A DNA stretch of 62,876 nucleotides, the filler included, from Corallochytrium limacisporum Hawaii (taxonomy: Eukaryota; Protista; Pluriformea), in NCBI GenBank assembly GCA_002811645.1. It is 3 parts of 3 records of this genome, joined end to end, with 100 filler letters (N's around TTAATTAATTAA, not from the genome) between each part and the next. Parts side by side here need not be neighbours in the genome. Positions count along the whole stretch, not along the records: positions 20,993 to 42,770 come from PDIP01000012.1; 2 more parts are not named here. One strand, given 5' to 3'. Within the stretch, counting starts at the first letter, position 1; every line of letters begins with the position of its first letter. The notes under the pieces are model-generated. The model searched no databases, was not told the origin of the DNA, and worked only from the letters and a program-made list of their open reading frames with translations. The position numbers and the translations under genes are program-made. Positions 21,773 through 54,239 of the stretch are shown here, piece after piece.

Positions 21773-21977
21773 GCGCAAGATACAGGGTAGGGAATCTCCA
21801 GACCCTAAGAAAATTTTTCTATTCATCCAACGCACAGAAGCGTGTCGTTTGCATGTCGTTTGCTAAGGTTCTGCAGATCCCCTACCCTGTATCCTTGCGC
21901 GAGTGTACTACGCAGTAACAATTCGAATTCATAGAACGTATTGCTGCCTACTACACAACCGCTGAAAAGGTTAGGTT

Positions 21978-22595: not shown

Positions 22596-23484
22596 AACGT
22601 GAGCCGCCAAATAATCTCTTCGTGCGATCAGACCCCCTCTCTGTCCCACTTTTGCCCCAGCCCCTTTCAATAGCCCGTGTTTGCCCAACCACGTCCCCGA
22701 GTCCAGACATGTTGAACACTGTAAGACGCGAAGGTGGAAGGCGGTGTACCAGTCTTGGATTAATAAACCCACATACATATATGTTTTCCTATAAACCACA
22801 GCCCTGGTAGTAAATAGCATACCAGATCATAAGCCTACGAAAGTTTTGGACTCTTCTAGACAAACACGGAAGACCGCACCCCTTTCGCATAGTCCAGAGG
22901 ATGGTGATCATGCGCTTTGACGTTGTGATGTTTCTAAAACACATTATTCACATGTGCCCACCCTCGTCCCTCACGTGACAGCTTGGAGCAGGATGTTCAG
23001 CATTTGTTTTCGTCTTTGAGTGCAACCGCTCACGACAGCGGTCCCGTAACCTGCGTTCCAGTAGTTTTGGACAGGTAGGAGAATGATATGGCGTTGGTCG
23101 GCGATTCTTACTCTCTTCGTCACATTCTGCACCCCCCCATATGATTCTAGTCAATGTCGTGCCTGCACATACAAGCTAAATTTGCACAGTTTACTTGCGC
23201 AGAAACTCATACCTCGAAGAGAGCAAACGAGCGAATTTGAAGACATGCAAGAGATGCTCCAGTTACAATCGTACTCAATGGGGATAGCAAAAGCTATGCC
23301 TGGCCCATGTGCGGAAACGAAATCCCAGGCTCACCTGTGATGACACTCAGATGGTCTATGAGCAATTGTCACGTGCAAGTAACGATCGAGACGTTCAGAC
23401 TTGTATTTTGTATTTTACACAATGAGTATATACACCACTCTCCGTACCTGTACGTTTGCACCAAGGGAGATTATGCGCTGAGAG

Positions 23485-23493
23485 GTATTTAAG
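23485..23493 (+). promoter_or_regulatory. TATA-like GTATTTAAG
   Basis: 84 nt before ATG 23577; same motif and spacing at other secreted genes. Confidence 0.5.
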
Positions 23494-23576
23494 TAATATC
23501 TAGGAGATTCAGTCTCGTCATTGACCACACAATTTGGTATCGTACGTCAAAGTATTCCCATCAAACAAAGACCACC

Positions 23577-23906
23577 ATGCACTTCAACATCAAGAACATT
23601 GTGCTTGCGCTTACCGCGGTCCCAGCCTGCACAACTATCGTTGCCGGTGCCCCTCTATCCGAGACTATCGTTGCCGGTGCCCCTCTATCCGAGACTATCG
23701 TTGCCGGTGCCCCTGTATCCGAGAATTTTGCCCTTGTATCCGAGATTCTTGCCCACAGATCCGAGGATCTTGCCCACAGATCCGAGGATCTTGCCAACGC
23801 CATGACCAGCGTTGATTCTACGGACCCGGGACAATTACAACAGCTGATCCAGCTGAGCCGTGAAATGCAAAAATACGATGAAAATTTGAGCGTTTGGACC
23901 CCCTGA
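23577..23906 (+). CDS. Small predicted secreted protein with internal tandem repeats (TIVAGAPLSE x3; LAHRSED x2-3)
   Basis: ACCACCATG start context, signal-peptide-like N-terminus, 30-nt x3 (23634-23723) and 21-nt in-frame repeats, GTATTTAAG 84 nt upstream. Confidence 0.65.
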   Translation: MHFNIKNIVLALTAVPACTTIVAGAPLSETIVAGAPLSETIVAGAPVSENFALVSEILAHRSEDLAHRSEDLANAMTSVDSTDPGQLQQLIQLSREMQKYDENLSVWTP

Positions 23907-24413
23907 GCTGATAAAAGTCCAACCTATTGCACACAGTAGTGTTCACACCGAAAACGAGGCTCCCAACAGCTTTGACTCAAGATTGTTTTACTCCCATTTT
24001 TTTTAAATACTTTATAAAATACATCTAAAGTCATTTTTGACATTCAATTTTATTGATTCATATCCAAAGAAAGATACCCCGTCTCAAAATGTTGATTTTC
24101 ATGCTATCCACACTTTGTCGATATATAAGTCTTTAGCAAAAAAAATATTTCTCGACAGCTGCCACTATGCTAAGACGAACCAATGTCTTACAGACCACCA
24201 TGTCGAATTTGATGGCGAAACAGAAGTATCTGAGAGATGTTTCTCGCAGATCATGTCGAAGGGGCCTTCTTGGTGTTTCATGACCAAAGACTGAGTTGGC
24301 TCCCCTTCCCTCCACTGCGACTGCACGAGCCATTGCAAATCCGCAACTTCGCTTCTACAGTCTTCGTTTTCTCGAGTGTATCCGGATCGAGAGTGGGCAC
24401 ACCATAGTCGAGT

Positions 24414-25106
24414 TCAGCCGCCAGAGTCTTGCCGGAAGAAGTTACTCCCGTCATGTTCCAACATTGCCACCATGTTGTTCAAAAGCGTGCGCCAACAACG
24501 TGCAATTGCATCTGAATCTCAGTTATCATAAGCATTCTGAACGTTGCCTACGAGATCACTCAACCTGCGAAGCCGAACACCTCTTGCTCTTGCTCTGGCT
24601 CTGTCCAACGATTTGAAGAGGTCAAGGCCAAGCACATTAAGGTCAGGGCTATATGCAGGCTGTGGAAAGAACACTATCAGAAGGCCCGTGTGTTGTTGCC
24701 ACATCTTGATTGCCGCATACTATTTCCCTCGGAGGGATCCGCTCATTATTCGCTTATGAACACCCGCATTGTCCATCCACAACCTAATAGGTCTGGACTT
24801 GTCCCAATCCTTTGGCCACTTGCGTTCGATGACTGGAAGCAACTTGTTGAGAAGAGCATCGAGAAACATTTCACCATCTACGCTCTGCTGAACTTGCTCG
24901 ATTACTATCGCAAAAAAAATCGATCCATCAGGACTCAAAAGATCAGCCATCACAAAGTTGGTATAATTCAACACACAATCGCGTACCATTAATGTTCGCG
25001 TTTTTGTTTGCCACATGTTCCATTCTGATAGAACTTTAGTGGGGTGAGGGACCAAAGTAGTAGTGGTACTATCGGATTCGAGAGGGAATGCTGTTTGTCC
25101 ATCCAT
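24414..25106 (-). pseudogene. Mariner-type (plant/oomycete DD39D-like) transposase remnant
   Basis: One frame reads LLPVIERKWP...IRLWMDNAGVH...*...QPAYSPDLNVLGLDLF...AYDN*DSDAIARCW...GSNFF; in-frame stops at 24720 and 24519; third catalytic Asp position is Gly. Confidence 0.82.
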
Positions 25107-25395
25107 CTATCATTCTTTGGTTGACAGGTTTCCAATAGTAATCGAGCAGTACGACCAGGCAATACGCTAGCGAAAAATGAGTACCGTGGTACCAGTACCA
25201 CCTTTACCTAGGTCCTACGAACGAATGTCGGATCGCACCAGCGTCCACCACCGTATCTCCTCGGTTACAGGACTGGGAACCCACAATGGACAGGGACCAT
25301 ACAGAAGAGAATTTCAAAGGGTCTGGCTCCGTGTCTCTCACGCGAAAGTCTTGACAGGACGGTCGGCCTTCTCATGATGATGGGCAGTAGAACAC

Positions 25396-25594
25396 NNNNN
25401 NNNNNNNNNNNNNNNNNNNNNNNNNNNNNNNNNNNNNNNNNNNNNNNNNNNNNNNNNNNNNNNNNNNNNNNNNNNNNNNNNNNNNNNNNNNNNNNNNNNN
25501 NNNNNNNNNNNNNNNNNNNNNNNNNNNNNNNNNNNNNNNNNNNNNNNNNNNNNNNNNNNNNNNNNNNNNNNNNNNNNNNNNNNNNNNNNNNNNN
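25396..25594. other. Assembly gap (199 N), probably an unresolved array of the ~54-bp unit
   Basis: The two flanks (AGTAGAACAC / GCAGCGATCA) are contiguous in the copy at 22331-22350. Confidence 0.75.
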
Positions 25595-25740
25595 GCAGCG
25601 ATCATTTCTTTACCGATGCCCCCCCCGCCCCTGTACGTGGTGTTTCCAATGGTCTAGCATATTTTCAGGTCCCACGCAGTAACAATTCGAATTCATAGAA
25701 CGTATTGCTGCCTACTACACAACCGCTGAAAAATGGGGGA

Positions 25741-25957
25741 GAGTGTACTACGCAGTAACAATTCGAATTCATAGAACGTATTCCTCGTCCTTTCCGTCTG
25801 TTGCCTTGACCAGCCTCCCTTAACATTCTGCCGGTTGGACAGGAACGGTGTTGGAGTGAATGTAGTTTTGAATACCACCATGAAAATGTCCTCAATGAGC
25901 CTTGCAATGAGATTCGGAATTGGGCCCACATTGCGAGCATGATACTGCACTATCTGG
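25741..25957 (-). repeat. Right inverted repeat (partner 21556-21772)
   Basis: Direct sequence comparison; near-identical spurious ORFs appear on opposite strands in the ORF track. Confidence 0.92.
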
Positions 25958-27969: not shown

Positions 27970-28670
27970 TTACCACCTCTTGGGATCTATGGGTTCGTCA
28001 GCTCGGTCGACACATTAACCATGTTCACCCTCTGTATAAGTACGACACCAGCCTCCGACACACTCCATGTCCCACTCGCACTCATCATCGTGGGCTCCAA
28101 GGTGAGGGTTGTCTCCATTGGGAGCACAATAGCCGTTGGTGCACTTTTCGCTCCAACACTCTTCGTCCAATGTACACTCAGCGTTGATGCGAAGCGACAT
28201 ATTAGTGGGTTGGTAAGTGTCAGGGATCGGGATACATGTGTTTCCATCGCAGCATTCCCCTGAAGATTCGCACTGCTGGTTAACCTCCTTGCACACAAAG
28301 GGCTGACAAGTGCCTAAGATCTGGTTACAGACGTTTTCGTTGCAGCATTCCAATGAAGATTTGCACAGCTCGTCAACAATGCCACATGCAAGGCTGGAAT
28401 CCTGGTCGTATATGTTCTAGTTGGGCCATCCACCTCCAGGACTGCCATCCAGGTAGAGATCTAGGTCAGTAACCGCATCAGTGGGTGTAATGACCATCTT
28501 GAAAACACCCAACTGCCAGTGTCCGCTCCAGAGGATGATGCGCTCGAAACGGGTGTACCCAAGTTCGTCTTCGTAGCCAGGTATCGCCCCCTGGTCTTGG
28601 ATCTTTTCTGGTCCGAAATTGTGTTTTGCCAATAGCATCTGATGGATCTGGCCACCAAAACTGCAATAGT
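27970..28670 (-). pseudogene. Cys-rich extracellular protein remnant (C-x6-C-x5-CC knottin/Dickkopf-like modules)
   Basis: ORFs 28417-28638 and 28015-28353 share a frame and are separated by an in-frame TAG; further TAA at 28015 followed by CVDRAD; repeats such as CKSSLECC, CESSGECC, CTLDEECWSEKC. Confidence 0.6.
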
Positions 28671-31063: not shown

Positions 31064-32457
31064 ATGAAACTAACTATCCTTCAGTTTACTGCCATCGCCT
31101 TTGCTTTCATTGCAAAGCCCATCCAGGCGGCTCCGTCAGACAATGACATCTTCCCGACAACTCTTCCGATTCTCCCCCCGCCCAAGGTCCAAGCTTTGGG
31201 GTCTGCGGCCTGGACAGAGGACCCCCCGAAGGAGCCTTTCTGTTCACCACCCCATGACATCTGTGACCTGAGCCTATTGCAGTTGGGCCGTGACCACCAA
31301 AGTTTCAATTTGGCACTTGGTGTAAACTGTGACATGACCCCAATCGCTGTGGAATACGTTTCCCAGAAGCACAATCTGGAGGAATTCATTCTCCAATTTC
31401 TCGGCAACTTCAATATGGTACCAACACCAGTGGAAAACCCATGGGAAAAAATAGTGCCTGGTGGGCCACCAATGCCAAGATGAACATTCTGTGGGGTCCC
31501 CTCCTGCAGGCACCCTTCTTTGACCCAGACGTACGAGCAGACGATCTGGAGGTTTACAAGCAACGGCTCTTTTCCGTGATCCAGGGGACTGATGAAACCC
31601 CATGCGCGACTTCAGAGTACGAACAAGCCGATGGCGTTCCGTACGGTATTGGCTTTCCGCTCTATGACAGCTACAACGGTGTAGATACTCCAACCCCAGC
31701 GTCCGTTCGAAGCACCTGGTGGACAATGGACTACACGCGTAGTCCAATGCATGCACAATACGACATGAACACGAACGCGTCGCCGTCGTGCGACAAGGAG
31801 ACCTTTTCCTACAATCAAGCCGTGTCTAAAACGACCAGTGCCACAAGTAGCCACTCAATTTCTGAAGAGTTTGAGTTCGACTTTGAAAGCAAGACCACAG
31901 CTGAAGTGAATGCGAAGTTTATGGGCATCGGAGCAAGCATGAAGGAAGAAATCACAGTAGGGTTCTCCAATACCATTGCGGCCTCCTGGAGCGAGTCTTC
32001 CACTGTCACCCATTCTACCACCACTGCTGTATCCAACAAATACGAAGCTAAGCTTCCTCCTTATGCTGTGTCCAACATCACACAGTATGTGGACCAAGTT
32101 CACGCAACTCTGGGATACACGAACGATGTCCGATATAATGATTCCCAGCCTGTCAAGACGTACACTTCTTTGCAGAAGCAAGCCCATTTTGGTCATAGCA
32201 ACCACACTGCCACCATGGGTGAGGTAAAGGAGTTGGTCATTGAGGCCGCTGACTTGCTTGGTGTGAAGTTTTCCGAGTTCTTCGAGGATGTCATCACAAC
32301 AGCCTCAATCTCAGGGAAAGCAGCTACAACACAGGGTATGGCAGTAAGCACTCTCCACAATGGCTGTGACCTTAATGCTGTTCACAGTGGTCATCTGCCA
32401 CCAAACGAATGCACTGATCTGGAGGCTCTAGCCTATCCGCCACGAAAGGGCTGTTAG
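31064..32457 (+). pseudogene. Secreted aerolysin/ETX-MTX2-like beta-pore-forming protein, paralog 1 (single frameshift near 31414-31440)
   Basis: Signal peptide plus N-terminal part in ORF 31064 and remainder in ORF 31441; colinear with the intact paralog at 37971-39281; Ser/Thr-rich alternating hairpin SHSISEEFEFDFESKTTAEVNAKFMGIGASMKEEITVGFS. Confidence 0.75.
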
Positions 32458-32835
32458 GAATTGTACCATGAGAACGCCAAGGACTTTTTTTAAACATGCT
32501 AAAACTTGGTTGCCACTTATCTCTGCTTTATGAATATTCTGATCCAGAGTATGCACTGAGTGCAGCTAGCTCATAGATCCATTTGTGCGGAGAATCACTT
32601 CAACTGTTCATTTACCATCCGTAGAATCCGACGGGTACTAGATCTGTTTTCTGGCCTGTTGCACTCGGAGATCTCCAATATGCAAGCTTACCAAGTCCGA
32701 TCGAAGTGTCTCCCAGGTGTTTTATTCATGAATTTTCCAAACTACTAAATTGTCAAGTAAATGTCAGGCCCGAAGGTGCCGAGAATACACGATTACGGAC
32801 TAAGATTCGTGAGAAGAGGGAGGGATCCGCTCGAT

Positions 32836-33357
32836 TCAAACCTGCGTACACGTCACATTGAAGTAGAGTGTAGCAAAGAAATTGGAGGTGCCGTCAGCCG
32901 TGGAAGAAAACTCACGGTGCTCCCCGACAACAGTCATATTTTTCATCACTGAAGGAAGTTGAGTCAAGGAGATGTTGCCGGTGAAACTGTCCCAATCTTT
33001 GTCATCACACTCATTCTCAGGTGAAGCCACAAAGGAGTCAGGCCATTGCAGGTCGACATACCACCACGGCACCTCTCCTGCGGAGACTTGAACGGCCAAG
33101 TCAACACCGTCTATGGATGGATTACTTTCGTGACATGGGCAGCTCCCTAAGGAAGCTGCGCCCCCGTAGCCAACCTGCAGCCCATCTGAAGACTTGCACC
33201 TGTGATACGATGGTTCATCATTGTTCTTGGATTGTCCAGTTTTAACTTGGTGGGCAGTAACTTCCGCCTTCTGGCATGTCACCTGTGGGGCAGAAACTGC
33301 ATGGGAAGAGGCAAATAGAGTCATTGCCATGGCGAGAATACAGTTAATGCAGCGCAT
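32836..33357 (-). CDS. Small secreted Cys-containing beta-rich protein of unknown function (upstream in-frame ATG at 33411)
   Basis: Signal peptide MRCINCILAMAMTLFASSHA; six Cys in the mature part; N-glycosylation sequons; GTATTTAAG upstream. Confidence 0.7.
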   Translation of the reverse strand: MRCINCILAMAMTLFASSHAVSAPQVTCQKAEVTAHQVKTGQSKNNDEPSYHRCKSSDGLQVGYGGAASLGSCPCHESNPSIDGVDLAVQVSAGEVPWWYVDLQWPDSFVASPENECDDKDWDSFTGNISLTQLPSVMKNMTVVGEHREFSSTADGTSNFFATLYFNVTCTQV

Positions 33358-33491
33358 TGTGGATGTAGACAACTTTTTTGGTGTCGTTGCTACCTTATCA
33401 AGTGGCACCATTTCTTTGTCAAAGCCAAAGTCTAGCAGTCATAGCAGTAAGATCCGTTGTACGATCATCAGAGCATGAAAATTGGACTGCA

Positions 33492-33500
33492 CTTAAATAC
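33492..33500 (-). promoter_or_regulatory. TATA-like GTATTTAAG
   Basis: 81 nt before ATG 33411. Confidence 0.5.
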
Positions 33501-34838
33501 CTGTAAGCCACTGACATCTCCGTGGGCACACAAAATTACATCGGCGAACATCAATAAATGAATGATGTTTACACACGCGTGCGCACCACAGGGCCCCGCA
33601 AATCCTTTCCCCCAACCCGCGGGGAGCATCTGCACGCTAACACCTACCTTAGAGATCGGCGAAACAGTAGGGACGAGACCAGGGACGCGCTTCCCTGTCC
33701 CGGCCCCCTTCCCCTCCAATGCCAATTTCTCCCCCCCCCCCCTTTCCTTTCGTCCGCGTCCGTGCGCGCAGGGAAAGCGAAAAGGGAAGAAGGAAAGGAA
33801 GGAAGGCGGGAGCGCGTTAATAGTTAGGCACTCGTGTATCCCCTATGGCCCCATCAGCAAAAGGATGGCTACCAATAATTTGGCACCACTCCGACATTTC
33901 TCTCTAACTGTGCCCAGAGATTTTCTTTTTTCCGCTTTCTTTCTTGTTTTTTAGGACTTTGTGTCCATTTCCCTTTTGGCACAAGCGAAGAGACTGGCCA
34001 ACAACGGGCGCCACGGAAAAAGTGTGCGAACTGAAATCGCTTTTTTGTTCGTTTGGGGATGTACACAAGCTCGGAACTACGGGGTACCACTGACCATACT
34101 GGCTCCCCATTCGCGTTCGCCTGGTGCCCCGGGGAGGGGGAGGGTTACACAAAGCGAAGGGGTGCTTTCTCTTCTTCCGTAGAACTCTCCTGGATCTGTG
34201 CGAACAGAAATATAAACTTGGGAGAACCAAAGACATACAATGCCTCGCAGCTGGCTGCTTTCGACGTGAAACTGCAATGGATCGTTCATTCATTCGCAAT
34301 AGCAGGAGTGGGTGGTTGGTTGGTTGGTGGGCCGGTGTTTTGGGTACCGTTGCTGGCCCCAAAGGAACTCCAAAGTCCATATCTGGACGACGGGTGACGA
34401 ATGCGTTCTTGGGCGGGCAGAAAGTCTCTTGCTCGCTTACCAAGAAAGAGTGGCGATCGGCAAGAGAGTCCGCATGTCGCTAAAACTTTCGATGAGCAAT
34501 GGACACGTCCTGCCATCACGTCCTATGAAGTTTCGCATGATCCATGCCCGAAGAAAACAATCTGTCTTACATGCCCAAGTAGTTTATTAGTGACAAGAAT
34601 TGTTCCTGGATCTACAGTTGCGCAAAAACTCTGTCTAACGAGCATTACCACCCTTGAGTGCAGTATTAATTAAAGCACTCAATCAAAAAGAATCAGAAAA
34701 GACCTCTTTTCTTGTGAAACTTACTTTTCGTCTCAAACCCTCTTGAATTCTGTAAAAGAGGGTGGTTGTATATTACCGTGACCTTCAGGATTCTGCGATC
34801 GACAAGGGAAAGTCCAAGACAAAACTGTGGACTGTGTT

Positions 34839-36216
34839 TCAATCAAGTGTGCAAGAAGTGGTAGGAGGATACTCAAAGGCCTGCATGGCATTGCAAGACT
34901 CGCCTGGAACGTCCCGGGCGTCACATGCGTAGTGTGTAGATCTCACAGATATGCCCTGGACAGAAGTTGCTTCACCAGAGACGGACGCCGTTGTGAGAAT
35001 ATCCTGAAAGGTAGCACTAAATGTAACACCAAGTAACTCGGCAGCATCAAGAATCAAAGTTTTGACCTGACCAAGAGTTGTAGTGTGGGGGCTGGTGCCC
35101 GAAGTATACTCTTTCTGCGTGCTTATGTACGGGCGGATACTGACAGAGTCCGAATAGTGTGTCATTCGTGTATCCCAGACGGGCTTCAACCTGATCCACA
35201 TACTGTGTAACGTTGGATATGGCGTATCCAGGGATTCTAACAGTTTCGTAGTTAGAAACTTTGGAGGTAGATTGTTCCGTGACCGTTTTGGACGTATCAT
35301 AGGACGCTGATATCGTATTGGAGAACCCTGTTTTTACTTCCGTTGAGACTTTTGAACTCATACCTGCCATACTGGCACCCACTTCGGCCGAAGCCTTGAC
35401 TTCTGTTGAGTATTTAAATGAGTCAGAGATAGAGTGGCTGCTAGTGGCGCTAGTGGTCAGTGTCACTGTGTCCTCGTAACTCAATTGCACGATATCACAT
35501 TGGGGGGACATGTTTTTGTTCATGGAGTACTGTACATTAGTCGGGATATTCCTGGACTCCATTGTCCACCAGGTACTTAGTACCTTTTCGGGCTCTACCG
35601 CTGCCCCCCCCCCATTGTATGCCGAAAGATAAGGGAAGCCAACGGCGAAAGGAACGCCGTCTCCTTGATCGTATTTAGTTTGGGCGCATGGCGTGTCAAG
35701 GCTGCCACCCATGACCTCATACAACGATTTCTGGTAAGTATCCAAATCGTCTTTGGACACATCCGGGTCGTAGAACGGTGCTATCAGAAGGGGACCCCAC
35801 ATCACATTCATCTTGCCCAAAAGGGATTCCCAGGAGCTACTCACATCCATCGACTTGGCCCCCTTCGCCAACATATTAAAGTTGCTGATGAATTGAAGAA
35901 GAAATTTTTCCAAATTCTCCTTCTCCTTCACGTATTCCTTGGCGATGATGGTGGTGTCACATTGGCCCCCCACAGCTTTCATGATATTTTGATTATTGAC
36001 ACCTTCGCGTAGCAGATCCATATCACAAACACCAAGAGGAGGCGAACACTTAACATTGTTATTGTTGGCTACGGTAAGATTCAGCGGATCAGTCTCAAAA
36101 GGCAAGGTTGGCTGGCTTTGAGAAGGCATAATTACATCGTTTGCTGGTGCCGCCTGAGTGATGCCCAAAACTGCGGCCAAAATGATGGATGTGCTGAGCA
36201 CCGGATTCTGATTCAT
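34839..36216 (-). pseudogene. Secreted aerolysin/ETX-MTX2-like protein, paralog 2 (single frameshift at ~35160)
   Basis: ORF 35047-36216 aligns with its paralogs to GYTND; homology continues in ORF 34839-35300 (HYSDS...AAELLGVTFS...YPP); consistent with loss of one AC from GACACACAC. Confidence 0.75.
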
Positions 36217-36295
36217 GGCTTTTGTCGATAAGTTACTTCTTTCTTAGTCTGTGAATGTTTCAGATTAGAACAAATTGCTTGCTGTTCAGGGGATC

Positions 36296-36304
36296 CTTAA
36301 GTAC
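36296..36304 (-). promoter_or_regulatory. TATA-like GTACTTAAG
   Basis: 80 nt before ATG 36216. Confidence 0.5.
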
Positions 36305-37970
36305 CTTGGCTGCGATTTAATGGGCTGCACATTCGTGACTTGGGTCCAGGTACAGCTCATTATTACCAAGGGCATTGTTTCGTTCACCAAAGACCAGCAC
36401 ATATTCTTCTACCTTTCCTTTGGGATCCGCGGACAAATTCGCACAGGCACGAACCACCCACACACACCCCGGGGGTTGTGTTCCGGCCCCATCTCTCCCT
36501 TCCCGCCTGCCCAAGGGGCCACCCCACCGTTCCACCATTTTCTTTTGAGTCATGGGTGAGGGGACGCAATGGGAGAGAAGGGGAAAAGGGGGGGAAAGGG
36601 GGCAGGGAAAGTAGAGGAGGTTAAAGTGGAGAGTAAGGTCATTCGGACTGGGACATCTATTCGGGTGTGTACGGTGGCCCCTTAGTCCCGAAGACTTTCT
36701 CATTGTCCATCTCGGCTTCGGGTGCCCAGGTACCCCATCTCCCCCGCCCCCCGCCTCCCCTCCCCCACTCCCCTATCTCCCGTCCGTGGGGAGCACCAAG
36801 CCCTCTTCCGACCTCCTGGGGACCCGTGTAAAACTTCATCCCAAGGTCAACCTTTGGGGCTACTGCTGTATGGTATAGTGAATAAATGGGCTGCCATCCG
36901 CGCACCGGACTGGTAATCACTCAATTTACTGCACAAGGATCCGGTGACTCCCAGATGAGCGGGGTTACAAGAGAGTGGGACGAAAAGGAACTTGCGAATT
37001 TTTTTTTTTGACAACCCTCCCGCTTCACCGCGAAGGGTGCCCCAGTTCTTGCTGACAGGCCGGGCACTTTCCAGCCATTGTGTACCAGCGCAGGTTGAAC
37101 AAGCAAACGACCGAGGCCTGGCCGTCCGCCCCAGAGTGAGGGCGTTTAGGGGGTGGGGGTTCCTGAGAGGGGCGAGACACAAAACTCTCTTCATCTCCGG
37201 GATTCGCGGCAAAGTAAAGGTATGGCTTTACCCTGAGGCAAAGTAAAAGCAAGTAGACACGGTGTCAAACCAGAATCTCCGCGGGATCCGTTCGGTCGTC
37301 GCCAACGCCTCACAATTCCCGAGAATGACACCTGTTCGTCCGAAGGTGGTCCATTGAAGTAAGAAAGGCGGTTATGATAGGCCAGGGCAATCTATCGTGC
37401 CCAAGGGGAGTGAAGTGGCGGTGGTCCATCTAACGTGACTATCCGTTCCTGGAGACGTGATATTGATCCCTGGAGACGAATTCCGGACACTAGATCGTGG
37501 TGCTGCACAGCGGTCATAGAGTGCAGAGTAAAATAGGTTGATATTGCTTATCACTGAGTTTGGGACTGTAGTATTACGGTGGTGTAGCCCTAGTTCCACG
37601 GTATCAGGAGCACGCGGAGCCTCCCGCAAGCGTACGTGGCATCCGGGACATCCATCGCCGTCCGATTATCATGCAGAGATACTTAGTATCTAGCACTGTT
37701 CCTGGCCCGATCACACCAAATGGCAATCAGGCGCTAGGGATGCATTCTGAATCATGTGCGTCTGCCAATCGAGGGGCCTTTCGAACACGCAGAGTCATGA
37801 CAAGTGCAGTTTATTCGCCTGTATAGAGAGTTGACGGATGTAGCCGTCATCTAGGTGATTGCTGTCCTCGTTTTCATATACAGATTTCCTTGTATCGGTG
37901 AGCTTCAACGGAGGTGCCGTGATTTCATGATTTACCACTTTAGTTGAACGGTGACGATGATGGACAGCTC

Positions 37971-39281
37971 CTAGCAGGAGGATTTCGGAGGATAGGTTAT
38001 TGCCTCCAGCGGAGTACATTCATCCTTCGGTATTAGACCTTTCTGGACAGCACCTAGGTCGCATGAACTGTGACGAGTGGTTACAGCTACACCCTGGACG
38101 GAAGTTGCTTTGCCAAACACCGTAGCCGTGGAAAGTATATCTTCGAAGATTGGAGAAAATGTGACTCCAAGCAAACCGGCGGCTTCGACAACCAATTCCT
38201 TGACCTCAGCCATGGTGGTTGTGTGCGTGCTCATGTTCTCTTTAGCCAGCTTCACAAGAGATGTGTAAGGATAGAGAATCTGTGAATCCGAGTAGTGGAC
38301 GTCATTCGTGTATCCCAGATGGGCTTCCACTTGGTCCACATACTGCGTCACATTGGAGACGGCGTTGGGAGGAATGTGCGCCGTGTATGTATTCGATACC
38401 TTGGTAGTGGTAGATTTTGTAACCGTTTTTGATTCGCTGTAGGCTGCAGAAATGGTATTAGAGAATCCCACAGTGAGTTCCTCGCTGACGCTGGCACCAA
38501 TGCCAGCGAACTTGGCGCTCACAGACGTTGAAGTCTTACTTTGCATGGACATTGTGAAGGAGTCGGAGATGGAGTAGCTGTTGGTTGCACTTGTGGTCAG
38601 GGCCACGTCTTTCTCGTATCCAATGTCCTCCGTATCGCATGAAGGTCCAATGTTGGTATTGGTGTCGTACTGTGCATGCATTGGAACACGCGTGTAGTCC
38701 ATTGTCCACCAAGTACTTTGCACATATTCCGGGTTTGGCATAAGGGCAGCATTATACGTATGCCACAGGGGAAAGGCAATGGCATATGGAATCCCATTCC
38801 CTTGGTCGTAGCTGTCGGAAGCACAAGGAGTGACATCAGTACCTTGCATGACCGCATAGAGTTTTTGAACGTAGTCGTTCAAGGCGTCCTCGTCCACATC
38901 TGGGTCGTAGTATGGTGCTTGCAGAAGCGGTCCCCAAAGGATTGTCATCTTGTTCATGGTGTCCCACCATGCCGTTTCAAGTTCCATGGTGGACGATGAA
39001 TTCTGTGGGTAATTGAAGTTGCCCACGAATTGGAGGATATAGTCTTCTAGATTTTCTTTCTGGGCAACGTATTCTTTTGCGATCGCCCTGGTATCGCACT
39101 GGGCACCAAGGGCAAAAAAGAAATTTGGGTTATCCCAACCCTGCTGTAGCAAACTTATGTCGCAAGTAGCGTAGGGACTTTCGCAAATCGCAAAACCATC
39201 GGAAGCAGTTAAGGGAGCACCATGCGTGACAGTTGCAACCGCGGCCAAGGTGACAGCTGCACATTGACGTTTAAAATCCAT
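37971..39281 (-). CDS. Secreted aerolysin/ETX-MTX2-like beta-pore-forming protein, paralog 3 (intact, 436 aa)
   Basis: Signal peptide MDFKRQCAAVTLAAVATVTHG; Cys-containing N-domain; S/T-rich amphipathic stem TTSATNSYSISDSFTMSMQSKTSTSVSAKFAGIGASVSEELTVGFS followed by TAHIPPNAVS. Confidence 0.8.
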   Translation of the reverse strand: MDFKRQCAAVTLAAVATVTHGAPLTASDGFAICESPYATCDISLLQQGWDNPNFFFALGAQCDTRAIAKEYVAQKENLEDYILQFVGNFNYPQNSSSTMELETAWWDTMNKMTILWGPLLQAPYYDPDVDEDALNDYVQKLYAVMQGTDVTPCASDSYDQGNGIPYAIAFPLWHTYNAALMPNPEYVQSTWWTMDYTRVPMHAQYDTNTNIGPSCDTEDIGYEKDVALTTSATNSYSISDSFTMSMQSKTSTSVSAKFAGIGASVSEELTVGFSNTISAAYSESKTVTKSTTTKVSNTYTAHIPPNAVSNVTQYVDQVEAHLGYTNDVHYSDSQILYPYTSLVKLAKENMSTHTTTMAEVKELVVEAAGLLGVTFSPIFEDILSTATVFGKATSVQGVAVTTRHSSCDLGAVQKGLIPKDECTPLEAITYPPKSSC

Positions 39282-39362
39282 GATCAAGTTTTGATTGTTC
39301 CTGCGCTTAGGAGTTGTCTTAATGGTGCCGACGCCCACTGCAACCTTGCTGATCAGTCGATC

Positions 39363-39371
39363 CTTATATAC
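39363..39371 (-). promoter_or_regulatory. TATA-like GTATATAAG
   Basis: 82 nt before ATG 39281. Confidence 0.5.
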
Positions 39372-41928
39372 CCTGCGGTAAAGTAGACTGACTGTGCCGC
39401 CTTACTCCCGGAATAGGGAAAATTTTCGTCGCTGGCCGTTTAGTCTGCATGATGTCCTGGTGACTGACATATACCCTTGGATATGTGTGGGTCAGATACC
39501 ACACAGAATGGTGATGGAAAGGACGAAAGCCACTTGGCCGCGGTTGCGATCGTGTTTCCCGTCGTTGGACTTCCACAAAGCTTTCTGGGCATTTGCAGAT
39601 TCTATCCTTCACTCCAACAGCTAATTAAGATCATTCGGAACAGTTGGCAAGCTTGGTGTTTCTTTGACGTAAGCATGCGTATAGGCCTGCCGATGCCCCA
39701 CGGAGATGATGGATGTCCATGATAGAGACAGATGACTCGGACGCTCCCTTTCGCAACCATTTTGCCTGCCGCCCCATTGTTTCTGTCGCATAGGTGACCT
39801 CCGGACAGTCATGGTTTTCTGTACCTCAGCAGCGCATCGATCCGAATCAATCGATGCTTCGGTCTGCTTCAATTGCATCACCGAAAACCCCACTTCCCCG
39901 TCTCCTTTCCGGTTCCGCAAACTTTGTCCTCCCTCGGACCCAGGCACAGGACACCTGACGATTGTCCTTCTTTTCAATGCAATTCCTCAATTTTCAAAAT
40001 ACTGACATTCTCAAGGTCTGAGGCAAACCTGTCCACTTCTGGTCCTGACTGAATGAAACCGTGCACAGTAGACTTCTTTGTGGGCCCATGGGGTCGACAC
40101 AACTCCACTTCACCGGGACACACTACATTCCACCGAATATGCCTAAGACCATGGTGCGGAAGGTGCGGACCGGTGTGAAAATGTGGCTTGCCCACGTAAA
40201 TGACCTTTGCGCAAATTGGTTGCGATGGGACCCAACCCGCAGTTTACCATCAGCCCAGGCTATTGACCCGACATGGTGCTATAGTCGTCTCAACATCCAA
40301 ACGATCCTTTGGCTGTCAGCTATTGATCACGATGGCACTTCTCCTTTTGCATACCCAGCTACTGACGCGTTAAGGTTGCATTCATGTACCGCCGCGGGAG
40401 GGCAGCCCAAACGCCTTTGCGGCGGGGCTAGCCGACGTATTTCGGGTCAAGTGAGGTCGTTAGGATATCATTTGATGATCCCAAGCCCTGATAGCGCTGA
40501 GATTACGGACGGATGTGATCGATCTGTCTTCCAATTCTCAGTTTGTGCACAGTTATTTCCATGGACTCTTGCAACGATAGTCTTCCCTTCTTTGCCCATT
40601 CGTAGAATACAACAGTGTTTTAAGTCTTCCACGTGCGTCCTGGTGTTGCTTGAGCATGGCTCTCAAAAATCTACGATGTTGTGACGCAATGAGCCAGGAG
40701 TCGGAGGCACCATGGACTACCAGCAAATAATGACATTGTATCCGGTAGCTCCATCAAACAAGTCCAGGCCATTGCTTTCAGAATCCCACTGCAATCCCCG
40801 ATGTCCATCATGCAGGCATGAGGATGAAAATATACTACTTGTTCACACAATTGCTCGTAAGCTCAGTTCTGAATTGTGGCATCGTGAAAGGATGACCTTA
40901 TTGTGTGAACTGTGATTCCCACTTGGAACCGGGCCTGCCAAACTCGTCAGCAATGGACAAATGTTACGAGTTTAGCTTATCGAGAGGTACCGGGTACACT
41001 ACCAAGGAGCCGGTCTTCCGTATGTTATCGTAAAAGTATGCAAAACCTCTCGATTCGGTCTATCCGTTTGCCGCCCCGGCTGAACATACATTCAGGCCCG
41101 GAAGGTGAATCACCAACCTTCCGCGCCTGCTCCTCGCGCACTCCGCTGACACGCGATAGTTGCGGTAGTTTTTCAGTAGAACGAGGATCTGCGGTAACTG
41201 GCATAGTATGGTAGCAGCTAAACAGCAAAGGAGCGCGAGTTGGCGGGGGGTTGGGGGTTACCGATTTTGATAACCGGAACCGTTGACGAGGTGTGCCCGG
41301 ACTTGTACTTCCTCTCACCTCCACCTCCCCATTTTACGGGCTTCTTTCTTGGAGGTAAGGGAGGGGGGAACCCCTGCCCCCTTGCCGTGCCCAATGTTCC
41401 CCTCTCTCTTCCCAGTACTTTGACTACTACCCACCCCGGTGTCCATTGTTTCTCTCTCTTTCTTCGTCTGAATTCGCAGAGGAGGGATTGGGGTGGGTTT
41501 TGCTGTGGAATATATATATTTTTGAATCAGAGCAGTTGGATTTTGTTGGACGGCTGTGAGATGAAAGGGCTGGGCAGGGATTTGGGAAGTCGCCGACGGT
41601 AAGGGCCTCAGTTTGACGGCGGAGCGTTTGACGGCCATAGGCATGCCCATCAGCCACTCCATATGTATACTACCGCTTCGTAAGTTTTGATAATGACAGC
41701 ACAGCAATCGGGAGAACGCATTACAGAAAGCATTCTTGCTAGACCATGTGTAGTTTTGAGAATAGGACTGGTTTATGGTAGTATTGTAGTGCGATGATTG
41801 CAAAGGGTAAATTCTTTAAAAGGTCAGACCAGAACTATCAATATCAAAGTTGGTCTATCACCTCCTTATGTAGAGCGGGACTCCTCGGCGGTGGGTTCAC
41901 CCATAGGTTTCTAGATTGGCTGGCGCCT

Positions 41929-42498
41929 TCACACTTTGGTGTTAGTAGGAGGTTGGGGCTTCGGAATCTGGCGCCTTGATACCGAAGGGAATACTTTAGT
42001 GGGCGGAGGAGAAATATCCTTCTCAGTCTGGCGCCTTGGCTTTTGGGATTCCCTTCGCACCTCAATGAAGTCAATGGAGTCGTCTGCGCTTTGCCATGTG
42101 CTCGCTTTGACCGGTTCTCCTAGTAAGAGTTCTCCGCTATCGCCTCGGAGGATCGGGAGAAGATATTCAACACTGTCAGAAACAGCCACAGATTGGGCAG
42201 CGGCCAAATCATCATTCAAGGTTACAGCGTCGGCAACTTCGGCCTGTCTTCGCTGTGGGTTTGCCACTTTCAAGACGCTCTCGGCCGCAACTGCGACATT
42301 AGGATCTAATGCCAACTCCCAGTCTGAGGGGTTTGTGAGTCTGGGAATGAGAACAAGCACAGCATCATTCACGTTCGCAGCGTCGGCAACGTCAGCGGCG
42401 ACAACAGCCTCCGCAGCCAGGTTGATCGGGGCAGCAGCTGTAGTGGTTGCAGCAGCCAGCAAGCTGAGCGCGGCCAATGAAACCTTTGCAGACATCAT
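41929..42498 (-). CDS. Secreted prepro-protein with repeated RR(Q/E) dibasic sites
   Basis: Signal peptide MMSAKVSLAALSLLAAATTTAAAP; Ala/Asp/Val-rich pro-region; RRQ or RRE x4 in frame and another RRQ just past the TGA. Confidence 0.7.
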   Translation of the reverse strand: MMSAKVSLAALSLLAAATTTAAAPINLAAEAVVAADVADAANVNDAVLVLIPRLTNPSDWELALDPNVAVAAESVLKVANPQRRQAEVADAVTLNDDLAAAQSVAVSDSVEYLLPILRGDSGELLLGEPVKASTWQSADDSIDFIEVRRESQKPRRQTEKDISPPPTKVFPSVSRRQIPKPQPPTNTKV

Positions 42499-42970: not shown

Positions 42971-43339
42971 CTTGTCATCGTGGAATGACCTTTGCTCCAA
43001 AATTGCTTGCAGTTACACCGTGCTGAGGGTTTAATTCATCATCTCTTCATCTGTACTGTGTTTCAATCGTGCTATTTCAGACGACCGAGATGAATGAGCG
43101 ACGAAATGTCCAAAATGCCGCCGGTTACAAAGCGATAAGGGCGACCATTGAATCCGGTTGAACACTGGGTGGCTGTAAACGATGAAATGACAGTGTGAAG
43201 TTTCTGTCTACAATTTTATAGATACTAAGTAGAATTCAAGGAGTCCCTTCAATATAGAAGTAGGGACGGTGCCAGGTTATTTGTTTCAAACTAAATTTAA
43301 AGAAAGAAACTAGAACCAAAAGAGGGTTTACGATAGATC

Positions 43340-44545
43340 ATGTTGTCAACATTAGCGCGTCGGAGTTTTACAGCAGCAGTGCAACGGGGCCCAGTACGAA
43401 CCACTTCAGTATCCATTTTGCGTCAGGCTTACTCCAGTACACGGGATGAGGAGACTAGGGCTACACCAACAAAGGACCCCATGTACATGGTGAAGGTTCG
43501 TTTACCCAGCAACCTGGTTGTGGAAATGGATAGCAGACGTGCTCTGTACGCAGCTGAAGAGCATGAATCTTCCCTACAGGGCAAGGCTGGCAACACTACC
43601 AAAGATATTAGCGAACTCCAGAGCACCCATGCGCGTAGGTTTGAAGGGCCAAAACGCCGGCAAGAAGAAATGCGCGCCAGACAGCAGCAGATTCAGCAGG
43701 ACAAGGAAGCCCGGGAGATGTACCATAGGCAGCAATCCCAGCAGGCCCAGCAGAGACAACAGTCTGCAGCTGAACAGCTAGCGGCTGTGAAGGATGAAAT
43801 TCCTGTGCAGATTGATAGTCTGCTGACCATGAACATTCACACCACCCATCTTATGCTACCCCAGGGGCTCCTGTTTGACCTGCAGGAGTTTGAGAATATG
43901 ACCCTGGATGGCGATGAGGCTAAGGTAGAAGAGCGCTTGAACAAGACTGGCGAGGAGTACTTCCGCGCCAATTCATTGGAAGAATTCCACGAGAAGGTTG
44001 GCAACTTGTCCAATGCCCACTCCAAGCTCTTGGAGCAAGCCATGAAGGAGAACAGTGACTTTGTCAGCGGCACACAGGACATGTGGTTCAACATGCTCCA
44101 GGAAGAGGCAGCTGAATTGGCCAATTTGTTCACGGACAGCAACATTGAATGCTTCGTGAAGCTCTGGCAGTACCTTGAGGTACCACAGACCATCAGGAAG
44201 CAAGGCAAGCGACATGTGCCACTCTGGGTGCCTGGTGCCAACCGCACGCAGATGACTTTCATCGGTGACCAGATCAGGTCCCAGCACAAACTAAACTTTG
44301 GCATCACCGATAGCGTAAGCACTGCCATGGACCTTCCGACTTGGAACGACTCTGATGATAACGTCATGCTTACCATGACGACTCTGAAATGGCGCGCACA
44401 GCGCATGCGCAAGCACCGTCGTATGAAACGCCGCAAAGCCAATCGCGCAGACAGGCAAAAGATGAAGGCACGTAAGGATGCTAAGCGTGTCAATCAGCTT
44501 ATGGCTGAGATTGCTCGCCGTGGTGGCATCGTTAAGGGCAACTAA
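43340..44545 (+). CDS. Mitochondrial ribosomal protein mS38 / COX24 / AURKAIP1-like (DUF1713 C-terminus)
   Basis: Mitochondrial presequence MLSTLARRSF; C-terminal TTLKWRAQRMRKHRRMKRRKANR motif. Confidence 0.72.
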   Translation: MLSTLARRSFTAAVQRGPVRTTSVSILRQAYSSTRDEETRATPTKDPMYMVKVRLPSNLVVEMDSRRALYAAEEHESSLQGKAGNTTKDISELQSTHARRFEGPKRRQEEMRARQQQIQQDKEAREMYHRQQSQQAQQRQQSAAEQLAAVKDEIPVQIDSLLTMNIHTTHLMLPQGLLFDLQEFENMTLDGDEAKVEERLNKTGEEYFRANSLEEFHEKVGNLSNAHSKLLEQAMKENSDFVSGTQDMWFNMLQEEAAELANLFTDSNIECFVKLWQYLEVPQTIRKQGKRHVPLWVPGANRTQMTFIGDQIRSQHKLNFGITDSVSTAMDLPTWNDSDDNVMLTMTTLKWRAQRMRKHRRMKRRKANRADRQKMKARKDAKRVNQLMAEIARRGGIVKGN

Positions 44546-44835
44546 GTCACGACAAGAGGCCATGGAAGTGCCGCTTTAAATGTAGTGCAACTGTACTGGC
44601 CAATGACCAGAAGATACGTAGTGGATTAAGCGCTTGTTGAGTCAAACAAACCTCTGTAACATTTTAAATAGAATCCATCATGTTTAAATACCACATCGAA
44701 ATCAATCGATTGTCTTTAGCTTATGCGTTCATGTCCTAACAGACCATGCTAATCATCTATTCCAAAAGACTTGTGCAGCTTTACACTTACGTCAAGACTG
44801 TGCGTCGTTCACAGTGGGGTCTGTGGTATTCTGCT

Positions 44836-45408
44836 CTACATGTGCTCAGGCCAGTCACAGGAAGTGCTGAGCAAGTCATTGATGGCCTTCAGACCCTCAG
44901 CGTCCACCTCTGAGTATCCATTCTTCTCCGCACAATCCAAATCCATCACTCCCAGCAGACCCACGTCAGCGCCATTCTGCTCGTCGGAAGCCTTGGGCCG
45001 CACGAGCGGCAATACAATCTCCGATTGACTGCGCTCATCGCACGCAATGTGTCCCGGAAACTCGTGCACGTCCTGCACGATCTGCACCTCGCGGGTCTTG
45101 GCACACGTGCCACACACTCCTTTGCCATACATGATGCGCTGACATGCCACGCGACCTTGAAATGGGCCCAGGATCAGGTCCTTGTCGTCGCGAAAGAAAT
45201 AGAATCCGACCCAGTTCACGCTGGTTTGGCCAAGATCATGCAGGCCATTGTAAATGTAAGCGGCTGCATTGGCGGTGTTGGAGACGTAATCACGCTCGTC
45301 GCCAAAAAGAGCCTTTAGTTCCACGGTAGCGGAGGCGTAAAACTCGCGCTTCTTTGTTTCTAGAGCAGAGTCCATATTTCCTTTCTTGGGTTCAGAAGAA
45401 GGCGTCAT
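44836..45408 (-). CDS. GAF-domain free methionine-R-sulfoxide reductase (fRMsr/MsrC/YKG9)
   Basis: Motifs NWVGFY, LILGPFQGRVAC, GKGVCG, DVHEFPGHIACD, SEIVLP. Confidence 0.92.
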   Translation of the reverse strand: MTPSSEPKKGNMDSALETKKREFYASATVELKALFGDERDYVSNTANAAAYIYNGLHDLGQTSVNWVGFYFFRDDKDLILGPFQGRVACQRIMYGKGVCGTCAKTREVQIVQDVHEFPGHIACDERSQSEIVLPLVRPKASDEQNGADVGLLGVMDLDCAEKNGYSEVDAEGLKAINDLLSTSCDWPEHM

Positions 45409-45443
45409 TTCAGTCTAAAATCCTTTCCCGTGCAACTCCAAGT

Positions 45444-45692
45444 CTAAAGTTCTGATCGGTAGATACCTTCTTTATATTCCTCAGCAACCCGCTTTTCTCT
45501 GCGTTCGATAACTGATTCGGTCAACAACTGCGTGTTCTCCTTCTGTTCATCCGGCTGACGGTAGTACTCTTCACTTAAAGACCCGATCGCACCTACAGTG
45601 AACGCAATGGGGAATACTGCGATACGGACCACTTGTGGGACGTACAACCGAAAAGCGTTCAGTACGAATGGCAAGGCCGCCTGAAATACCAT
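45444..45692 (-). CDS. SMIM12: SMIM12/UPF0767-like small membrane protein
   Basis: FRLYVP...FPIAFTVGAIG..E...SVIERREKR matches the SMIM12 pattern (RTYAP..FPVAFVVGAVG..E...SISERREDR). Confidence 0.72.
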   Translation of the reverse strand: MVFQAALPFVLNAFRLYVPQVVRIAVFPIAFTVGAIGSLSEEYYRQPDEQKENTQLLTESVIERREKRVAEEYKEGIYRSEL

Positions 45693-46561
45693 GGAAGAAA
45701 CAAGATATGCTGTTCCTGGCAATCACGGCTATGCGGGCTTCGGTAACGACCAAATTTCTTTGCATCCACCGAGCTGCCTGATGCAATTGGTACGCTCCTG
45801 ATCCCGGACTGACCAGCACCGCAGGTCACTTATAGCACCCCTAGCCACTACCAACTTTAAACGAGCAACACACGGGCCGTGAAGGCGGAAAGAGGTGAGA
45901 AACTCAGACATCCCGTCATCGACCCACAAACGACAGGAGCCCCGGGAGAGACTCCGTTCTGCAAAGCGGCGCTCGCACACAATGCGCTCTCGCACACGAA
46001 AATGCCAAGAGGCCTGTGCCCATTCTCCGACCTCTCCCGCACCCCTCCCACCAACCCGCCCGGTGTTTCCCTTCGTCCCCTCCCCGCCTGCCACTCCCCC
46101 GAGCTTTCTCTCCTCGGGGACTTGGCAGTGTGAGTCTGGCCGACGAAGCCCAAAAATTCCAGGGGTGCTGCTCCGCTCGCTTGGAAGAGAGGGGGGGGGT
46201 GGGGGACCGTACTGCATAATTATGCACGTTGCAAGTTTGTGTATTGTTGTCTTCCAGGGAATTTTTATGACACAGGAACAGCCGGAAAGTACTCTATCGA
46301 GTGGTGAGAACGCACGACCTCATTCGCATCAGCATGCTTCTGTTGGATGTCGCATTTTGGCATGGCTAGGAAAGCGTGTAGTCCCGGCCAATGTGCGATG
46401 TTTTGACTACTACTACGTGACTAATGTAAATCTGTTGGAACAAGGACAAGTCATGGTCGATCCTCTGTCCATGTGTCGAGGCACTCTGATATCGTACCCT
46501 GCATAACAAATGTCTACGAAGAATCCCGTTACCGCCCCGTGAATTACACACAGCGCGCACT

Positions 46562-47986
46562 TTATCCCATGTAGTTGGCCATCATTCCCTTCATGTTGCT
46601 CATGCTCTCAGCCTGCTCCTTCATGAAGGCCTCGAAATACTGGTAGGTGATAGTAACAGCCAATAGAATACCCGTTCCGCTACCAATTGCGCCAAAAGCG
46701 TCGGCAACAATGGACAGTGCACCAATGCAAATACCACCGAAAGCAGCAGCCACTGGAATGTAACGGTTGAGGTACTCCCGCTCCTTGCCCGGGCGGTAGC
46801 CCTTGATGGTGTACTGCTGGGCCTTCAGAGTCTTGGCCAAATCATAGGCGCTACTACCGCTGAAGTCAATCCAGACGGTGGACAGCATGGCGCAGGTGGA
46901 CAGCATAAAGACGACGTAGAAGGCAGTGTGCAGGGGAGCAGCAGCCATCTCCACCAGACCACGAGGAGGAGAAATGTAGTATGCCAAACCACCGATGGGC
47001 ATGGGACGACTCTTTCCCTCACCAGACCAGGTACCCAACAGTTGAACCATGAGGTTGTCTGGGAAGCGAGAGTACAACAGATTGGACAGGATGGAAATCT
47101 GAGAAGTGAGGGCACTCTGCAGAATAATAGGCATGTTGGAAGTGTAGAAGAGCTTGATGGGCAGGACGCTCTGATGACCGGTCTTGTGTTGAATGGGGAT
47201 GTCGACACGGAAACCCTGGAAGTAAGTAACTACCGCAAAGACAACAACAGTGGCCAGCAAGTTCATCATGTTGGGGGCACCCGTGCGCCAGAAAGCGTTC
47301 AAAATATGGCTGGCCTTGTTCTCATACTTGAAGACCAGGCTGCTAATAAACTCAACAACAGCACCCTCGTACTCGGTACCCATGCCGGTGGTGGTGGTCA
47401 TGGGGCTCAAGCTCTGCCACATGATGTTCTCACAAATGTTGGTCGCAATAAACAGTGAAATACCGGACCCAATACCGTAGCCGTTCTGCAGCAGCTCATC
47501 CAAGAGCATGACAACAACACCAGCAATGGTTAGCTGAGCAACAATCAAAGCACCAGTAAAGAAATCGACGGGACCATACATACCCATGGCCACGTACAGG
47601 ACAGCCTGAGCCACAGTCATAACCATACCGAAGAGCTTCTGCGCACCCTCAAAAAGCTCACGGTCGCGGGGCAGCTGTTGGTTGACCTCAATCAGCTTGG
47701 CACCAGCAAGCAACTGCATAATAAGACCGGAAGTAACAATGGGAGAGATACCCAGTTCCATAAGCGTACCACGATTGGAAGCCAGAATGACACGCAGCAG
47801 GAACAAAGGATCTGCTCCCTGAACATGGTACCCGTACAGTGGAACCTGTGACATCACCAAAAAGATCAGCAGGGTCACACCAGTGTACACCAGCTTTTCG
47901 TTGAATGCCAACCGTCCAAGAGGCTTTTCAACCGAAGGCATAGCAGCCACAAAGGGCGCCACGACATCAAGCATGCGGAAAGACAT
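46562..47986 (-). CDS. SEC61A: Protein translocon subunit Sec61 alpha
   Basis: Motifs RVILASNRGTLMELGISPIVTSG, GSGISLFIATNICE, PIKLFYTSNMPIILQSAL, GSGTGILLAVT. Confidence 0.97.
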   Translation of the reverse strand: MSFRMLDVVAPFVAAMPSVEKPLGRLAFNEKLVYTGVTLLIFLVMSQVPLYGYHVQGADPLFLLRVILASNRGTLMELGISPIVTSGLIMQLLAGAKLIEVNQQLPRDRELFEGAQKLFGMVMTVAQAVLYVAMGMYGPVDFFTGALIVAQLTIAGVVVMLLDELLQNGYGIGSGISLFIATNICENIMWQSLSPMTTTTGMGTEYEGAVVEFISSLVFKYENKASHILNAFWRTGAPNMMNLLATVVVFAVVTYFQGFRVDIPIQHKTGHQSVLPIKLFYTSNMPIILQSALTSQISILSNLLYSRFPDNLMVQLLGTWSGEGKSRPMPIGGLAYYISPPRGLVEMAAAPLHTAFYVVFMLSTCAMLSTVWIDFSGSSAYDLAKTLKAQQYTIKGYRPGKEREYLNRYIPVAAAFGGICIGALSIVADAFGAIGSGTGILLAVTITYQYFEAFMKEQAESMSNMKGMMANYMG

Positions 47987-50383: not shown

Positions 50384-50412
50384 AGCACTAATCTGGCGAT
50401 TCGCTCCAAGTC

Positions 50413-54152: not shown

Positions 54153-54239
54153 CACTCACAGAATAGACTATAAAATCATGTTACTCTTTTCATTGTGGTT
54201 TTAAGATTTTCATAATTTGGAGAAGAGGGACCCTTCTAG

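Follow-up and report, generated by a model that had tools for sequence, protein, structure and literature searches.

The 62,876-nucleotide (nt) stretch of Corallochytrium limacisporum Hawaii DNA analysed here (GCA_002811645.1; hereafter the window, along which all coordinates count) carries, inside its PDIP01000012.1 part (20,993 to 42,770), a cluster of three related genes, A, B, and C (Table 1), which likely represent one intact and two broken copies of a secreted beta-pore-forming protein of the aerolysin/ETX type. A tblastn search and a profile search over six frames returned exactly these three copies in the window and no fourth. An earlier note on this DNA had described three paralogs of ~440 to 460 amino acids (aa); three paralogs are indeed present, but only gene C is continuous (436 aa), whereas A and B are each split between frames. 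The eight motifs reported there as common to the copies, namely C..P...CD..LL, NLE.(F/Y)(I/L)LQF, WGPLL.AP..DPDV, TPCA, STWWTM, a Ser/Thr-rich segment, QYVDQV.A.LGYTND, and C..(L/M).A..YPP, all occur in all three. The signal peptides it had proposed are likely, in that each window copy, like most of the paralogs, opens with a hydrophobic, signal-peptide-like stretch as judged by inspection. The cluster itself is present, but the family to which it belongs is far larger, at ~30 genes.

Table 1. Genes A to C and the predicted parts of the gene C protein (residues in gene C numbering unless given as model residues).
Feature	Position	Strand	Remarks
Gene A	31064-32457	+	Paralog split over two frames; change between ~31418 and 31480
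Gene B	34839-36216	-	Paralog split over two frames; change between ~35134 and 35171
Gene C	37971-39281	-	Single open reading frame; intact 436-aa family member; P0031 in the protein collection
Likely signal peptide, residues 1-21	39219-39281	-	Hydrophobic stretch up to Ala-Pro, common to most paralogs; by inspection
Head, first part, residues 30-184, four conserved Cys	38730-39194	-	Helices in the model; retained in every core-less P0026 repeat
Predicted core strands 1 and 2, residues 186-234	38580-38726	-	Model strands 157-181, 187-205; strand 2 runs into the first Ser/Thr tract (column fraction 0.52-0.56 around 225-241)
Insertion loop, predicted membrane-spanning hairpin of the pore state, residues 242-277	38451-38558	-	Alternating hydrophobic columns
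Second Ser/Thr tract, Ile-Pro turn, predicted core strands 3 and 4, residues 287-329	38295-38423	-	Model strands 258-274, 278-300
Head, second part, residues 330-385	38127-38294	-	Helical pair in the variable strand 4-5 loop; model helices 328-341, 348-354
Predicted core strand 5 and Cys-containing end, residues 386-436	37974-38126	-	Model strand 357-379

The pieces of A and B are 47-61% identical to gene C, depending on the piece, which is far beyond chance. The open first part of gene B ends too early to include strand 5 or the second part of the head. P0003, a database gene model identical to the second part of gene A, spans the break with a predicted intron, dropping ~20 codons present in the paralogs. 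We consider this intron doubtful, because it removes a stretch that the paralogs encode and because the intron density of the species is given as ~0.0 per kb (PMC5560861). Contigs from two DNA runs, X1 and X2, traverse the breaks in both A and B with no gap row; these runs come from one sample, possibly the source of this assembly. A contig of X3, a run from another sample, traverses the gene B break as well (34941-35456, 0 differences, depth 6), and the break in gene B is therefore probably real. Pairwise ratios of nonsynonymous to synonymous substitution (dN/dS) among the three copies were 0.14-0.27 in four of five pieces, the fifth being saturated, and no further stops were seen in A and B beyond the frame breaks, which argues that both genes evolved under constraint during most of their existence. 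The GC content at third codon positions of genes A to C (0.53-0.55) is lower than in seven of eight neighbours and higher than in one, and gives no evidence of recent transfer.

Both X3 and X5 behave as RNA: over 43100-61000 their contigs track genes, covering 25 and 24 of 30 bins, respectively, and intergenic bins are empty. Signs of expression are few: low-depth X3 contigs map to gene B and to the 5' end of gene A, and X5 yielded one contig whose ends read as P0001. For the 3' part of gene C and for the body of gene A, no contig is listed in the RNA-like runs, which is no evidence of silence; the intron proposed for gene A has no RNA contig over it either. The 5' part of gene C, together with DNA upstream of it (38458-40000), has a second, ~92% identical copy elsewhere; DNA-run depth over this interval is two to three times higher, and X3 holds a 2.6-kb contig of the second copy. 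P0032 (Clim_evm80s33, 168 aa, 95% identical) stops at the same place as this copy.

The family comprises 33 gene models, 24 of them at least 420 aa long with head and core; the remainder consists of genes A and B, some fragments, one chimera, and P0026, a protein discussed below. Paralogs outside the window are known as database gene models. A profile search of 1.84 billion representatives returned 26 proteins at E ≤ 0.001, of which 25 bear Clim names and one is the open part of gene B; the prefix Clim_evm, borne by every gene returned in a first search, is one that we take to stand for Corallochytrium limacisporum. Four further members emerged from later searches. No relatives outside C. limacisporum were found among the 1.84 billion representatives, the deeper 22-row profile having been searched by word index only. 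In metagenome contigs, gene C gave 23 pattern matches, of which 0 were confirmed, and plasmids held no relative. Median pairwise identity over the 22 aligned rows is 25%. A tree built by a quick method separates two groups, and in it A, B, and C share a subgroup with P0001 and P0002. Besides duplicates, the family includes copies that are truncated, split, or frameshifted. Among the 22 printed paralogs, 15 have a C-terminal tail of 38-77 residues, which in nine of those 15 follows a dibasic site and, by its sequence, resembles a cleavable propeptide; in the window copies the tail is missing (length 0).

Some members depart from this plan. P0028 carries a domain with a DxxDxDxE motif, presumably GH18-like, fused to a core fragment, and is perhaps a gene-model chimera. 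Extra N-terminal domains of ~200-240 residues, with no Pfam match, are present in P0022 and P0023. The gene number on its own scaffold is between 1 and 8 for 25 of the 31 named members, which could mean scaffold ends or subtelomeres, with the caveat that Clim_evm number order may not follow position (80s33 lies outside the window, 82s33 inside).

The aerolysin/ETX-MTX2 core proposed in the earlier note is in agreement with the predicted structure and with three fold searches. The 30-row AlphaFold model of gene C had a predicted local distance difference test score (pLDDT) of 90.8 and a predicted template modelling (TM) score (pTM) of 0.79, with five runs at 87.2-90.8. Its strands fall at residues 186-210, 216-234, 287-303, 307-329, and 386-408 in gene C numbering; residues 244-280 form a loop and residues 330-385 an insertion, and a five-strand topology with these loops is the aerolysin fold as given in PMC3110756. 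A 7-row model (pLDDT 38.8) gave a best Z of 3.5 and nothing at Z ≥ 5 in the fold search, and was uninformative on the head. Foldseek returned 36 chains at E ≤ 0.001, and all 30 of the matches listed are aerolysin/ETX-type, the best among them being Cry51Aa1 (E 5.5e-9); the AlphaFold and Foldseek check that had been suggested for gene C thus recovered the core, the loop, and, among the matches listed, nothing but chains of this type. In VIA (48,161 chains), the 13 chains at Z ≥ 5 were likewise all aerolysin-type (best Z 9.8, root-mean-square deviation (rmsd) 5.6, 154 aligned), the best unrelated chain reached Z 4.3, and a second VIA look agreed. VIA also aligned 127 of 152 residues of a core-only Bombina protein to model residues 156-380 at rmsd 3.6, and lamprey LIP, Dln1, and LSL to the core only (model 153-380). 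On the predicted model, it is the uniformity of these top rows that carries the case for the fold, the Z values alone being middling. The model displays the five-strand core, the loop, the Ser/Thr tracts, and the structural matches that characterize the aerolysin-like beta-pore-forming toxin superfamily, and we regard an aerolysin-type fold of gene C, as predicted, as almost certain.

Searches with sequence profiles gave weaker indications. The family profile against PDB sequences produced 19 rows at E ≤ 10, the first five being Cry78Aa-type, parasporin-2, and Cry51 (E 3.5e-4 to 0.055). Weak matches to Pfam ETX_MTX2 (PF03318) were found in four of 24 paralogs, the best in P0011 (21 bits, E 3.2e-4); the gathering cut-off is 22 bits, and none of the 24 reaches it. 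First hits in Atlas (0.93-0.94) fell in aerolysin and ETX clusters with a recognition of 1605, under the 2300 mark. All three of these hints can be driven by Ser/Thr bias. Pfam Aerolysin (PF01117) had no match at E ≤ 0.1 in the window pieces or the paralogs searched, and a viral fold library gave one unnamed match at E ≤ 0.001. Two cyanovirin constructs (E 0.05) and a ribosomal protein, obtained with phmmer for gene C against the PDB, were weak and were rejected as chance.

The segment predicted to line the pore shows a regular pattern over the 22 aligned rows. Hydrophobic columns occupy even positions from 242 to 258 and then odd positions from 261 to 277, with a turn at 258-261. Over the whole protein, Ser/Thr column fractions peak (0.52-0.60) in two tracts, 225-241 and 276-296, and an Ile-Pro turn at 303-305 comes after the second tract. 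The free-centre hairpin score was 2.99 versus 1.09 ± 0.32 and was reached by 0 of 2000 column shuffles. Tested row by row, 21 of 22 rows gave p ≤ 0.003 and P0025 failed, with registers taken from the same alignment, which counts against this test.

The organization of the head is disclosed by P0026 (Clim_evm1s30, 1060 aa), known as a database gene model, in which an M12B zinc-protease domain is followed by three core-less head repeats; an HExxHxxGxxH motif is visible, and no signal-like start was seen by inspection. Each repeat joins profile positions ~26-182 directly to 327-397, which map to gene C ~30-180 and 326-388, so that strands 1-4, the loop, and strand 5 are absent three times. Since the repeats lack exactly the core assigned from the model, head and core are separable modules and the head is discontinuous (~30-184 plus 330-385). 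The unfamiliar ~200-aa N-terminal domain of the earlier note does have no sequence relative outside the family, but it is only the first portion of this head. No sequence relative of the head was found outside the family, the 1.84 billion representatives included, and an Atlas search with one P0026 repeat gave no usable hit. In the model the head is mainly helical, unlike the beta-trefoil and jacalin heads of the all-beta lectin type. When whole chains are aligned, aerolysin and Mpp75 overlap the head from model residue 55-70 onward at rmsd 6-10; on the model, the head could be a distant descendant of their receptor domains. The head could be a modular targeting domain that steers about two dozen pore formers and the P0026 metzincin to a single type of target surface; there, the protease would activate the pore formers or digest the prey surface. 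We offer this tentatively and consider it unlikely. If it were true, toxins and protease would form one system, coupled through the head and built by a eukaryote that is closely related to animals.

The best explanation, in our judgement a reasonably likely one, is that gene C encodes a secreted aerolysin/ETX-type beta-pore former of which A and B are broken copies. That gene C or its intact paralogs form pores is quite probable, and that the pores act on other organisms has somewhat better than an even chance. Several observations weigh against this explanation, which is built on sequence and predicted structure. Two of the three local copies are broken. Foldseek TM-scores were 0.14-0.27 by query length with rmsd of 9-25 Å, and the VIA Z values of 7-10 are near those that the tool calls common for unrelated folds. 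The proposed ETX_MTX2/Aerolysin check in Pfam failed for gene C, which has no match at E ≤ 0.1; the window pieces have no aerolysin/ETX match, and phmmer found no relevant PDB sequence match for gene C. Ser/Thr bias by itself produces profile hits, ten of the 22 rows scoring against a serine-rich family that has no relation to these proteins. Strand 4 alternates as strongly (moment 1.87) as the loop (1.76), and alternation alone is therefore not diagnostic. The Ser/Thr-rich alternating hairpin described earlier holds insofar as alternation between the tracts is family-wide, but the soluble model shows residues 252-280, and thus most of the segment, as helix and not as hairpin. A helix-to-hairpin change, which occurs in some ETX-type proteins, is proposed. 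Finally, the fold as such is no proof of lysis, because one of the close structural matches, 2d42, is a crystal protein with a title that calls it non-toxic.

This last point bears on a first alternative, in which the aerolysin fold was kept but the proteins are not weapons, instead having a role at the cell surface, in the wall, or in storage, or forming non-lytic channels in the cell's own membranes or vesicles. Such roles would be in agreement with the loop being helical in the model and with Table 2 of PMC3110756, where aerolysin domains appear in annotated yolk and epidermal proteins and in many non-pathogens; in addition, ~24 full-length copies are a large number for a genome given as 7,535 genes (PMC5560861). 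A purely structural role has, however, no need of a two-faced segment that switches phase at 258-261, yet this pattern persists in 21 of 22 rows at a median identity of 25%, and the truncated, split, and frameshifted copies fit an arms-race family, so that we consider this alternative unlikely. The pores could also be used in the organism's own life cycle, for mother-cell opening to release amoebae or daughters, or for killing kin or damaged cells. A coenocytic stage releasing amoebae is described for the species (bioRxiv 10.1101/2020.11.12.379420) and contigs of family loci are present in the RNA-like runs, but a self-directed role leaves ~30 divergent paralogs and their turnover unexplained, and we find it improbable. 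The notion that the aerolysin likeness is an artefact of a Ser/Thr-rich, strand-rich sequence with some other elongated fold would accommodate the lack of a Pfam match for gene C, the low TM-scores, the serine-rich false hits, the low Atlas recognition, and the low pLDDT of the 7-row model, but is highly improbable given that the 30-row model was confident in all five runs, that only aerolysin-type chains top the fold searches, and that the P0026 deletion coincides with the core limits.

Under the preferred explanation of a secreted pore former, the gene C protein would be exported, as is common in the mode of action of the family (PMC3110756), would use its helical head to attach to the surface of foreign cells, and, like known aerolysin-family proteins, may oligomerise into a ring, after which residues 242-277 would change from loop to hairpin and insert as a beta-barrel pore, leading to lysis. 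Judging from the lifestyle, the pores might be used against competitors or grazers, or for nutrient release by an osmotroph, and gene birth and death, visible as duplicates and as truncated and frameshifted copies, could diversify the targets. Predation, a use named in the earlier note, is unlikely in its phagotrophic form, since the literature gives the species as a free-living osmotroph (PMC5560861).

Genes A to C lie in a gene-poor, repeat-rich island of likely secreted proteins (18-43 kb) with housekeeping genes on either side. A 4.4-kb element at 21556-25957 has 217-nt inverted repeats at its ends and 363-nt direct repeats inside, and one of its frames (24720-25106, minus strand) has a weak DDE_3 transposase likeness (E 0.13); by its sequence, the element is likely a decayed DNA transposon. 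A small frame inside it (23493-23906, plus strand) has a signal-like start and three 30-nt tandem repeats, with no notable Pfam match. Small proteins at 28015-28416, 32836-33411, and 41929-42498, all on the minus strand, are secreted-looking or Cys-rich and belong to no Pfam family.

If the pore-former explanation holds, ~0.3% of the genes (~24 of 7,535) of a gene-poor, free-living osmotroph would be given to a pore-former family unseen by Pfam, which would point to an unrecognised antagonistic side of C. limacisporum ecology and to an undercount of aerolysin-type proteins in the unicellular relatives of animals. The head, with no sequence relative in 1.84 billion representatives and reused on a protease, may be a new binding module. 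Two dozen natural variants that differ in predicted lumen charge could be a resource for nanopore work. The species is described as growing axenically and as stably transfectable (bioRxiv 10.1101/2020.11.12.379420), so function is testable.

Among known systems, the ETX/MTX2-type proteins (Mpp51/Cry51Aa, Mpp75Aa1, Cry23Aa1, parasporin-2, and epsilon toxin) gave the best Foldseek matches (E 5.5e-9 to 6.4e-6) and the longest VIA alignments (212-235 residues), and they share the Ser/Thr tracts and the insertion loop; some paralogs also have the weak PF03318 matches given above. Identity is only 8-13%, and no window copy reaches any Pfam match to that family. In contrast to these proteins, the Corallochytrium family carries a ~210-residue head with conserved cysteines and a eukaryotic signal-like start, and the C-terminal tail with its dibasic site is present in only part of the family and in none of the window copies. 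Aerolysin itself has a discontinuous domain 2. The Corallochytrium core aligns with domains 2-4 of the Aeromonas protein (VIA Z 9.3, rmsd 9.8, 220 aligned), and the head is found at the place of domain 2, likewise composed of an N-terminal part and the strand 4-5 loop (topology according to PMC3110756). Unlike aerolysin, the Corallochytrium proteins have no lectin domain 1, the window copies have no C-terminal propeptide, and sequence similarity is absent.

Two systems from microbial eukaryotes provide further comparisons. SaroL-1 of the choanoflagellate Salpingoeca rosetta, also a unicellular relative of animals, is described as an aerolysin-type pore former that is haemolytic and oligomerises (PMC9468336); it aligned in VIA with Z 6.3 and rmsd 5.7 over 150 residues at 9-10% identity. 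It has a beta-trefoil lectin head, whereas the Corallochytrium head is helical and the family has ~30 members. The yeast killer toxin K62 likewise has an aerolysin-type core, reported as found by structure prediction only and linked to niche competition (PMC12691639), and the same source gives Ser/Thr-rich tracts beside the loop as a trait of the aerolysin-like superfamily. K62 is credited there with >1,000 homologs across fungi, plants, and bacteria, whereas the Corallochytrium family was found in one species only, and the searches made for it returned no K62 relatives. No paper on a Corallochytrium aerolysin or pore-forming protein was found by title or start of abstract, though supplementary lists could hold Clim entries. 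As far as these literature searches reach, the claim of an undescribed family in a unicellular eukaryote therefore stands, with a head of its own and with scores below the Pfam cut-offs. What is new is the family and its head; the mechanism is not, aerolysin-type pore formers being known in many eukaryotes, a choanoflagellate included.

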